Source: Candidatus Micrarchaeia archaeon (lineage in GTDB: Archaea > Micrarchaeota > Micrarchaeia > Micrarchaeales > CABMGC01). Taken from it: a stretch of 11,502 nt of DNA. The stretch covers positions 1 to 11,502 of the forward strand of contig JBMFHL010000023.1 in the NCBI GenBank assembly GCA_049976845.1, in the 5' to 3' direction. The notes under the pieces were generated by a model. The model saw nothing but the letters and a program-made list of their open reading frames with translations. It did no database searches and had not been told where the DNA came from. The position numbers and the translations under genes were made by a program. Every line of letters starts with the position of its first letter. The first letter of the stretch is position 1. Shown here piece by piece: positions 8,446-8,638 of this stretch.

Positions 8446-8453
8446 TTTATTAA
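8446..8453. promoter_or_regulatory. TATA box for the tRNA-Gln(-sRNA) transcript, possibly shared with divergent alaXM
   Basis: TTTATTAA ending 28 nt before the tRNA 5' end; reads TTAATAAA on the minus strand about 26 nt from ATG 8420. Confidence 0.6.
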
Positions 8454-8480
8454 TTTTGGTTGAGCAATCCAAACAATGCT

Positions 8481-8553
8481 AGTCCCGTCGTCTAGTGGCC
8501 AAGGACGCAGGGCTTTGGACCCTGCTACGTCGGTTCGAATCCGGCCGGGACTA
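8481..8553 (+). tRNA. tRNA-Gln (anticodon TTG), no intron, CCA not encoded
   Basis: Acceptor AGTCCCG 8481-8487 / CGGGACT 8546-8552 (A1-U72, the archaeal tRNA-Gln/GatDE determinant); D stem GTCT/GGAC; anticodon arm CAGGG-CTTTGGA-CCCTG (TTG 8515-8517); T arm GTCGG-TTCGAAT-CCGGC; A73 at 8553. Confidence 0.97.
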
Positions 8554-8608
8554 ATCTAGTGATGATACGAGGTATTTCTGATAAGTGATGAAAAAGAGTC
8601 ATCTGAAA
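8554..8608 (+). ncRNA. Box C/D 2'-O-methylation guide sRNA, directly downstream of tRNA-Gln
   Basis: Box C GTGATGA 8559-8565; 12-nt guide TACGAGGTATTT; box D' CTGA 8578-8581; TAA; box C' GTGATGA 8585-8591; 11-nt guide AAAAGAGTCAT; box D CTGA 8603-8606. Canonical archaeal spacing. Exact ends are inferred. Confidence 0.9.
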
Positions 8609-8638
8609 CGGAACTCTTTGCCTCTGCAAATGACTTGC

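Follow-up and report, generated by a model that had tools for sequence, protein, structure and literature searches.

The tRNA-Gln(UUG) locus and the guide RNA sequence behind it

The locus described here belongs to a metagenome-assembled genome (MAG) of a Candidatus Micrarchaeia archaeon (GCA_049976845.1; 731 kb in 52 contigs, ~90% complete), in which a gene for tRNA-Gln(UUG) is followed on the same strand by a sequence with the boxes of an archaeal C/D small RNA (sRNA). The window that we analysed is the entire contig that carries it (C23, JBMFHL010000023.1), 11,502 bases in length. In what follows, G000 is the studied genome and labels of the type G001 stand for other genomes; g1 is the genus of G000, whereas g3 and g40 are other genera of the same order. 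The coordinates of the features are collected in Table 1.

The locus had been singled out by a sequence-only reading, which placed box C five nucleotides (ATCTA) after the tRNA discriminator and described four perfect boxes with guides of 12 and 11 nt. Both direct inspection of the sequence and a regular-expression search reproduced this arrangement exactly. A scan of the 731-kb genome for four-box arrangements, carried out on both strands with up to two box mismatches allowed and with guide spacers of 10-13 nt required, returned three sites, and only the one behind tRNA-Gln was perfect. The same scan on five block-shuffled genomes, used as a chance control, gave no site in any of them; thus, the four-box match is far beyond chance. 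Judged by its sequence, the stretch 8559-8606 is a canonical archaeal box C/D sRNA. In the minimum free energy (MFE) fold of 8481-8670, the tRNA cloverleaf was retained.

In the Rfam scan, the sRNA reached no family's gathering threshold, in line with the earlier expectation that standard annotation would miss it. At relaxed thresholds, the best matches were full-length archaeal C/D models, which matched on the boxes rather than on the guides: sR2 (RF01139, 30.7 bits vs a gathering score of 42), sR9 (RF01312, 24.5 vs 36) and snoPyro_CD (RF00095, 22.6 vs 45). Because these scores were below threshold and rested on the boxes, membership in the three families was rejected and the sRNA was filed under the C/D class alone.

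CCA is not encoded in the tRNA-Gln(UUG) gene, in which ATC comes directly after the discriminator A8553. As this gene is the sole one of its kind among the 25 tRNAs detected in the assembly, the locus has to be transcribed. Among the 8-mers of the 60 nt that precede position 8481, TTTATTAA scores best, and no other TATA-like element lies nearby, as the sequence-only reading had also stated. At the same place, an AT-rich block is present in the same-genus relatives of alignment A1, which consists of G000 and five same-genus genomes (the aligned segment of one of these, G006, ended within the spacer). In the 60 nt before box C of the sRNA, the best 8-mer matched at only 5/8 positions, and the interval from -29 to -24 falls in the T arm of the tRNA. 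The only run of four or more T residues between 8554 and 8760 is the T5 run listed in Table 1. By TATA 8-mer scoring and T-run search, there is therefore neither a promoter nor a terminator between the two RNAs, which agrees with what had been claimed from the letters alone.

The T5 run is part of an inverted repeat, whose arms arise from CTTCGCAAA being an inverted copy of the 3ʹ coding end of the convergent gene for prolyl-tRNA synthetase (ProRS), TTTGCGAAG. This repeat is the first candidate terminator of the tRNA-sRNA transcript, and may act on both convergent transcripts.

Table 1. Features of the tRNA-Gln(UUG) locus, numbered along the 11,502-base window
Feature	Position	Strand	Basis or remark
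AlaX-like editing-domain gene, divergent	7686-8426	-	PF01411 C-terminal part, PF07973
TATA-like box TTTATTAA of the tRNA-Gln transcription unit	8446-8453 (~28-35 nt upstream of the tRNA 5ʹ end)	+	6/8 matches to TTTAWATA
tRNA-Gln(UUG)	8481-8553	+	Rfam RF00005, 59.3 bits; ARAGORN span 8480-8554; discriminator A8553
Spacer ATCTA, 5 nt (predicted start of the RNase Z trailer and sRNA 5ʹ leader)	8554-8558	+	sequence
Box C, GTGATGA	8559-8565	+	sequence, regular expression, four-box scan
D' guide, TACGAGGTATTT, 12 nt	8566-8577	+	sequence, regular expression
Box D', CTGA	8578-8581	+	sequence, regular expression
D'-C' loop, TAA, 3 nt	8582-8584	+	sequence, regular expression
Box C', GTGATGA	8585-8591	+	sequence, regular expression
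D guide, AAAAGAGTCAT, 11 nt	8592-8602	+	sequence, regular expression
Box D, CTGA	8603-8606	+	sequence, regular expression
45-nt stretch after box D, in G000 alone among the aligned genomes	8607-8651	+	alignment A1
9-bp inverted repeat, encloses the ProRS stop codon and the T5 run (8660-8664)	8640-8648 with 8662-8670	+	MFE fold, T-run search
Prolyl-tRNA synthetase (ProRS) gene, convergent	8652-10109	-	PF09180, PF03129, PF00587

The second tRNA of the window, tRNA-Pro(CGG) at 734-807, gave no Rfam report at the gathering threshold, and no C/D candidate adjoining it was found in the four-box scan.

Conservation and predicted rRNA targets of the sRNA

When 8470-8625 was compared with 40 relatives by blastn, many of them matched the sRNA portion alone, with 83-94% identity. 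The orthologues have an almost invariant D' guide (..CGAGGTATTT) and a D guide that mostly reads AAAGAGAGTC plus 1-2 nt. We then used the search pattern TGATGA-N(1-5)-GAGGTATTTCTGA-N(2-7)-TGATG, by which the D' core GAGGTATTT is fixed in all matches. Exact matches were present in 150 of the 248 genomes of the order (G000 and the unpublished G038 counted in), and the reversed pattern, run as a control on the 248 genomes, gave none. In the GTDB species genomes, the exact pattern occurred at at least 119 loci, of which 116 were parsed. These 116 orthologues retain the boxes and guides in the same geometry as G000; box C' is GTGATGA in 98 of them, and 107 have a 3-nt D'-C' loop, for which 39 different sequences were counted. 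Fixed boxes and guides together with a drifting loop and drifting flanks are the signature of a functional C/D guide and, on this comparative evidence, the sRNA behind tRNA-Gln is a real, conserved guide RNA family of the order.

Among the matches listed, 72 of 80 record titles name Micrarchaeota, Micrarchaeia, Micrarchaeaceae, Micrarchaeum or Mancarchaeum, the last of which we take to be placed within the Micrarchaeota group. One of the loci (L110) comes from a Micrarchaeum grown in co-culture. Six exact matches (L057, L062, L067, L075, L092, L097) lie in MAGs that bear the labels Marsarchaeota, Methanothrix sp. and Acidiferrales bacterium; the contigs in question are likely mislabelled or mis-binned ones of Micrarchaeota. 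Four genomes (G074, G110, G144 and G183) had two pattern matches each on separate contigs, which could result from duplication or from assembly redundancy.

No 23S rRNA was found in the G000 assembly, whose 16S rRNA is on C20 (9513-11499, minus strand). The 16S match extends over 1987 bases, compared with 1478 positions of the model, which suggests an insertion of ~500 nt, possibly an intron. The predicted targets were tested on the 23S rRNA of four relatives, namely G004 (from the same genus), G008, G023 and G032. The D' guide of the genus forms 11 of 12 Watson-Crick pairs with the site TAATACCTCGTC in all four of them, and the D' guide of G000 forms 10 contiguous Watson-Crick pairs with the same site. 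For the D guide of the genus, AAAGAGAGTCGT, we found 10 Watson-Crick pairs and one G-U pair with CTGACTCTCTTT in the 23S rRNA of G004, at a site that lies 20 nt upstream of the site of the D' guide; on the 23S rRNA of G008, G023 and G032, this guide remained below the reporting threshold.

A blastn search with a 241-nt piece of the G004 23S rRNA gave no match to E. coli genomes. In a MAFFT alignment to rrlH of MG1655, the N+5 targets, i.e. the nucleotides paired to the fifth nucleotide upstream of box D or D', corresponded to E. coli U1940 for the D' guide and to C1920 for the D guide. We take C1920 to be located in the 3ʹ strand of 23S helix 69, and U1940 at the start of the helix 70-71 region. 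In the part of Dennis et al. 2015 (PMC4644070) available to us, helices 68-71 are described as a hotspot of 2ʹ-O-methylation at the subunit interface, and dual guides with nearby targets are proposed to serve as folding chaperones.

Going by this complementarity, the sRNA should direct 2ʹ-O-methylation at both 23S sites together with L7Ae, Nop5 and fibrillarin. The sequence-only reading had left the genes for these proteins to be confirmed, and all three are encoded in G000 above the Pfam cut-offs (88.6, 185.6 and 257.6 bits, respectively). RNase Z (C16, 10562-11437; TIGR02651, 316.8 bits vs a cut-off of 292.95), an archaeal CCA-adding enzyme and the RNase P RNA are encoded as well. The role as an rRNA guide, also put forward in that reading, was supported by the conserved orthologues and by the complementarity of the D' guide to the 23S rRNA of the four relatives, to which the D guide of G000 pairs less well.

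The register of the D guide varied among the 116 orthologues: one nucleotide came after AGTC in 58 of them, two in 39 and three in one, and 18 had no AGTC. With the register, the nucleotide predicted to be methylated moves between the 23S positions equivalent to E. coli 1921 and 1920. The 18 orthologues without AGTC carry other D guides, and there the guide may have been replaced, as an alternative to a shift by one nucleotide.

Other targets were considered and rejected. In 16S rRNA, an 11-nt site could be paired with the D guide by 9 Watson-Crick pairs and one G-U pair (read by hand), but a mismatch falls on N+5 itself. No listed complement of the G000 D guide with up to one mismatch lay, by eye, within any of the 25 tRNA genes. 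Self-targeting of tRNA-Gln, in the style of the guide in the tRNA-Trp intron, was dismissed after reading of the sequence revealed no complementarity.

The other two C/D candidates of G000 are both located on minus strands. The candidate on C6 (5095-5141) has the box C TGAAGA, with one mismatch, and three perfect boxes; a TATA match of 7/8 is at -34, and its D guide forms 11 Watson-Crick pairs and one G-U pair with the 23S rRNA of G004, at position 2578 of the oriented locus L051. The candidate on C1 (72691-72735) has perfect boxes C, C' and D and a TATA match of 7/8, ATTAAATA, at -30. By eye, it also has a perfect CTGA as box D' after an unusually short spacer of 8 nt, whereas the four-box scan scored another D' with two mismatches. 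Its complementarity to rRNA is weak, with 9/12 for the D guide and 8/8 on 23S for the 8-nt spacer.

Origin of the fused arrangement and predicted biogenesis

In the relatives, the sRNA lies on the same strand as the tRNA-Gln(UUG) match and downstream of it, at widely differing distances. The suggestion to look for C/D boxes after tRNA-Gln in related genomes was productive: the sRNA lay within 10 kb of the tRNA-Gln match in 19 of the 40 relatives searched by blastn. In 13 of these 19, tRNA-Gln(UUG) was confirmed by ARAGORN, with gaps of 5, 24, 33-43, 89, 143 and 938-1376 nt, and in the other six the distance was ~1.5-9.4 kb according to the blastn coordinates. Among the at least 119 GTDB loci, the gap to a tRNA was at most 5 nt in four, 11-60 nt in 12 and 61-300 nt in three, while 97 had no tRNA within 300 nt and three had too little flank to tell. 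The AT fraction upstream of box C, calculated for 115 orthologous loci, rises to a maximum of 0.83-0.93 between -29 and -24, over a background of ~0.55. This maximum is consistent with an archaeal TATA box and would place initiation in most relatives at box C or shortly ahead of it.

In alignment A1, 28 nt of a T-rich spacer (ATCTTTTTATCTTTATTTTG...) are missing from G000 and present in the four same-genus genomes that cover the spacer; by separate extraction, the spacer is 33-43 nt long in all five same-genus relatives. As read from the alignment, the T-rich spacer of the relatives probably consists of the tRNA terminator and then the TATA box of the sRNA, and it was a 28-nt deletion that took it away in G000. 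As a consequence of this deletion, box C starts 5 nt past the tRNA discriminator, and the sRNA has no evident route of expression other than co-transcription with the tRNA.

The 248 genomes of the order were also scanned for the fused state, defined as a tRNA 3ʹ end, 3-8 nt, and box C with the D' guide. Such a junction was present in nine genomes: in all seven of g3, in one of 12 of g40 (G115), and in G000 alone of the seven of g1. The tRNA of G115 resembles that of g3, and the fusions of g3 and G115 may, by this resemblance, have a single common origin. The comparison indicates that the fusion of G000 is a separate event, and hence that fusion arose at least twice in the order, once in G000 and once in g3 with G115. 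Across four fused species, identity was 0.97 in the sRNA, 0.97 in the tRNA, 0.75 in the 80 nt upstream of the tRNA and 0.50 in the 80 nt downstream of the sRNA; the high identity of the sRNA, in comparison to the sequence downstream of it, argues for purifying selection on the fused sRNA. In addition, a 433-nt Logan contig from a public sequencing run (X1) matched 8500-8595 without gaps and with one difference, and 8652-8804 with 23 differences; between 8595 and 8652, it has 183 letters in place of 56. To judge from this contig, a related population shares the junction of G000, which argues against an assembly artefact as well as against a very recent event.

We consider it probable, on these grounds, that tRNA-Gln(UUG) and the box C/D sRNA of this Micrarchaeota (DPANN) archaeon form a dicistronic gene, with the sRNA derived from the tRNA trailer by RNase Z; co-transcription, the RNase Z cut, 3ʹ trimming and methylation are the steps that we infer. 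Transcription would start at the tRNA-Gln promoter with its TATA-like box and would read through past the sRNA to about the T5 run. RNase P would trim the 5ʹ leader of the tRNA, and RNase Z would cleave after A8553, so that one cut would produce both the 3ʹ end of the tRNA, to which CCA would be added, and the 5ʹ end of the sRNA at 8554. The trailer from 8554 would assemble with L7Ae, Nop5 and fibrillarin, and the 3ʹ tail of the sRNA would be trimmed back to the sRNA-protein complex (sRNP).

Several observations weigh against this proposal. By eye, the 5ʹ leader AUCUA and the 3ʹ flank AACGG form no terminal stem, and they were unpaired in the MFE fold. No RNA run was among the nine public sequencing runs listed for the locus (shares 0.04-0.07), and the contigs obtained from four runs were of DNA only. 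The 11-nt D guide of G000, tested on the 23S rRNA of relatives only, is weaker than the D guide of the relatives: with the 3ʹ strand of helix 69, CTGACTCTCTT, it forms seven contiguous Watson-Crick pairs, a mismatch and two more pairs (read by hand); with a U at the equivalent of E. coli C1924, the pairing would be complete. Within g1, G000 is the only species genome with the fusion, the age of which rests there on one Logan contig. Finally, box D is directly adjacent to the stop codon of ProRS in the four aligned same-genus relatives, and G000 has gained 45 nt at this place, so recent decay is possible.

The shortened D guide with its internal mismatch, the 45 extra nucleotides found in G000 only and the occurrence of the fusion in one of seven species genomes of g1 also speak for an alternative, in which the sRNA is a decaying relic. 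In this case, a recent 28-nt deletion would have cost the sRNA its promoter, and the trailer would still be transcribed but would form no stable functional sRNP, the boxes being intact for lack of time. We regard this as improbable. No box carries a mismatch, the D' guide still forms its 10 contiguous pairs, and the population represented by run X1 has the same junction with one difference in 96 nt (8500-8595), in comparison to 23 in 153 nt of the neighbouring gene. Moreover, the fused layout is fixed in all seven species of g3 with an sRNA identity of 0.97, which means that fusion alone is not inactivating.

It is still less probable that the sRNA is expressed but that its 5ʹ end is made without RNase Z, by a TATA-independent start inside the tRNA gene, by another endonuclease or by 5ʹ-3ʹ trimming after an unrelated cut. 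According to the portion of PMC7994747 available to us, most archaeal C/D sRNAs have no recognisable promoters, and their flanks can be altered without loss of maturation. The self-promoted orthologues, with their TATA box at -29 to -24, also seem to have their start at box C or immediately ahead of it, and the mature 5ʹ end may therefore be closer to box C than 8554. However, the tRNA has to be cut after A8553 anyway, because its CCA is not encoded and the genome has RNase Z as well as a CCA-adding enzyme, and after this cut 5 nt remain before box C; furthermore, the 60 nt upstream of box C contain no TATA-like element. Least of all do we expect the 5-nt junction to be a collapse or chimera of the assembly with a true spacer of 33-43 nt as in the genus, since, despite the 52 contigs of the MAG and the six other g1 species genomes without a 3-8-nt junction (five with spacers of 33-43 nt, and G003 with the sRNA ~1.5 kb from the tRNA match), the independent Logan contig from run X1 runs gap-free across the junction, the genes on either side of it are intact and its position is mid-contig in a sequence of 11.5 kb, and the same architecture is found in eight other genomes of the order.

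With regard to the evolution of the dicistronic gene, we lean, with moderate confidence, towards capture of the sRNA. It would have been an independently promoted, order-wide dual guide, loosely syntenic to tRNA-Gln(UUG), that was captured two or more times by loss of the promoter/terminator spacer and was then selectively maintained. The C/D set of Micrarchaeota would be near-minimal; in G000, the candidates number three in total.

Relation to known tRNA-linked guide RNAs

Plant dicistronic genes for tRNA and small nucleolar RNA (snoRNA), reportedly described by Kruszka et al. in 2003, are said to be processed by RNase Z. As in these genes, a tRNA promoter would drive a C/D guide that is freed by RNase Z; however, the plant genes are eukaryotic and have an RNA polymerase III promoter inside the tRNA, whereas here an archaeal TATA box lies upstream. 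The intron of archaeal pre-tRNA-Trp is likewise said to contain a C/D guide, reportedly since the work of Clouet d'Orval et al. in 2001. Both there and here a C/D guide would come from a tRNA precursor, but the guide in pre-tRNA-Trp is intronic and acts on its own tRNA, whereas the sRNA studied here is part of the 3ʹ trailer and has guides complementary to 23S rRNA.

The closest likeness is to the tRNA-Val(TAC)-sRNA8 dicistron of Nanoarchaeum equitans, in which, according to the accessible part of Randau 2012 (PMC3491384), an RNase Z cut generates the 5ʹ end of the sRNA and which is called there the first prokaryotic case. The tRNA-Val-sRNA case named in the sequence-only reading agrees with this source, as far as it was available. 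In both systems, a C/D sRNA lies directly behind a tRNA in a DPANN archaeon with a reduced genome, and an RNase Z-made 5ʹ end of the sRNA is proposed. The case of N. equitans concerns tRNA-Val and has support from RNA-seq, whereas the present one concerns tRNA-Gln of Micrarchaeota and is known from sequence alone. Here, the comparative series indicates fusion through loss of a T-rich spacer that carries the TATA box of the sRNA in the relatives.

In Pyrobaculum, sR44 is found behind elongator tRNA-Met with a spacing of 8 nt, ~100 nt or 13 kb depending on the species, as stated in the section of Lui et al. 2018 (PMC6009581) that we could consult. The spacing of the tRNA-Gln sRNA varies among related species in a similar way (4-5 nt, 18-43 nt, 60-143 nt or 1-9 kb), and for both sRNAs close neighbours of the tRNA are taken to be co-transcribed with it, and more distant copies to have promoters of their own. 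sR44 belongs to another sRNA family, in another phylum and with another tRNA, and here fusion would have occurred at least twice within one order. Breuer et al. 2021 (PMC7994747, consulted in part) credit cases of an sRNA with tRNA-Ser in Ignicoccus hospitalis, tRNA-Pro in Thermoproteus tenax and tRNA-Val in N. equitans to Tripp et al. 2017. In the first two, as in G000, the sRNA is directly downstream and tRNA 3ʹ maturation is suggested as the source of its 5ʹ end, but the tRNAs and the lineages are different.

The literature search found no work on box C/D sRNAs of Micrarchaeota, nor, among the papers listed, any that joins DPANN and box sRNA. A tRNA-Gln-linked sRNA was not met in those parts of the literature that were accessible, and to that extent the sequence-only reading, which knew of no such case, was correct; it had underestimated the extent of precedent, since cases with tRNA-Ser, tRNA-Pro and tRNA-Met are published (PMC7994747, PMC6009581, as far as consulted). 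By the same sources, the mechanism and the evolutionary fluidity of tRNA-sRNA fusions have already been described, and the locus of G000 adds no new mechanism.

What it adds to the few prokaryotic dicistrons of a tRNA and a guide RNA is a case with evolutionary intermediates, which is also the first found for tRNA-Gln and for Micrarchaeota. It annotates a guide RNA family that is missed by standard pipelines, and it predicts 2ʹ-O-methylation at the equivalents of E. coli C1920/U1921 and U1940, at the subunit interface of the ribosome of uncultivated symbionts. If the sRNA was indeed captured repeatedly and maintained, these genomes would hold a natural evolutionary series for the origin of RNase Z-dependent biogenesis of guide RNAs, and the supply of a guide for ribosome maturation would be tied to tRNA expression in genome-reduced symbionts.

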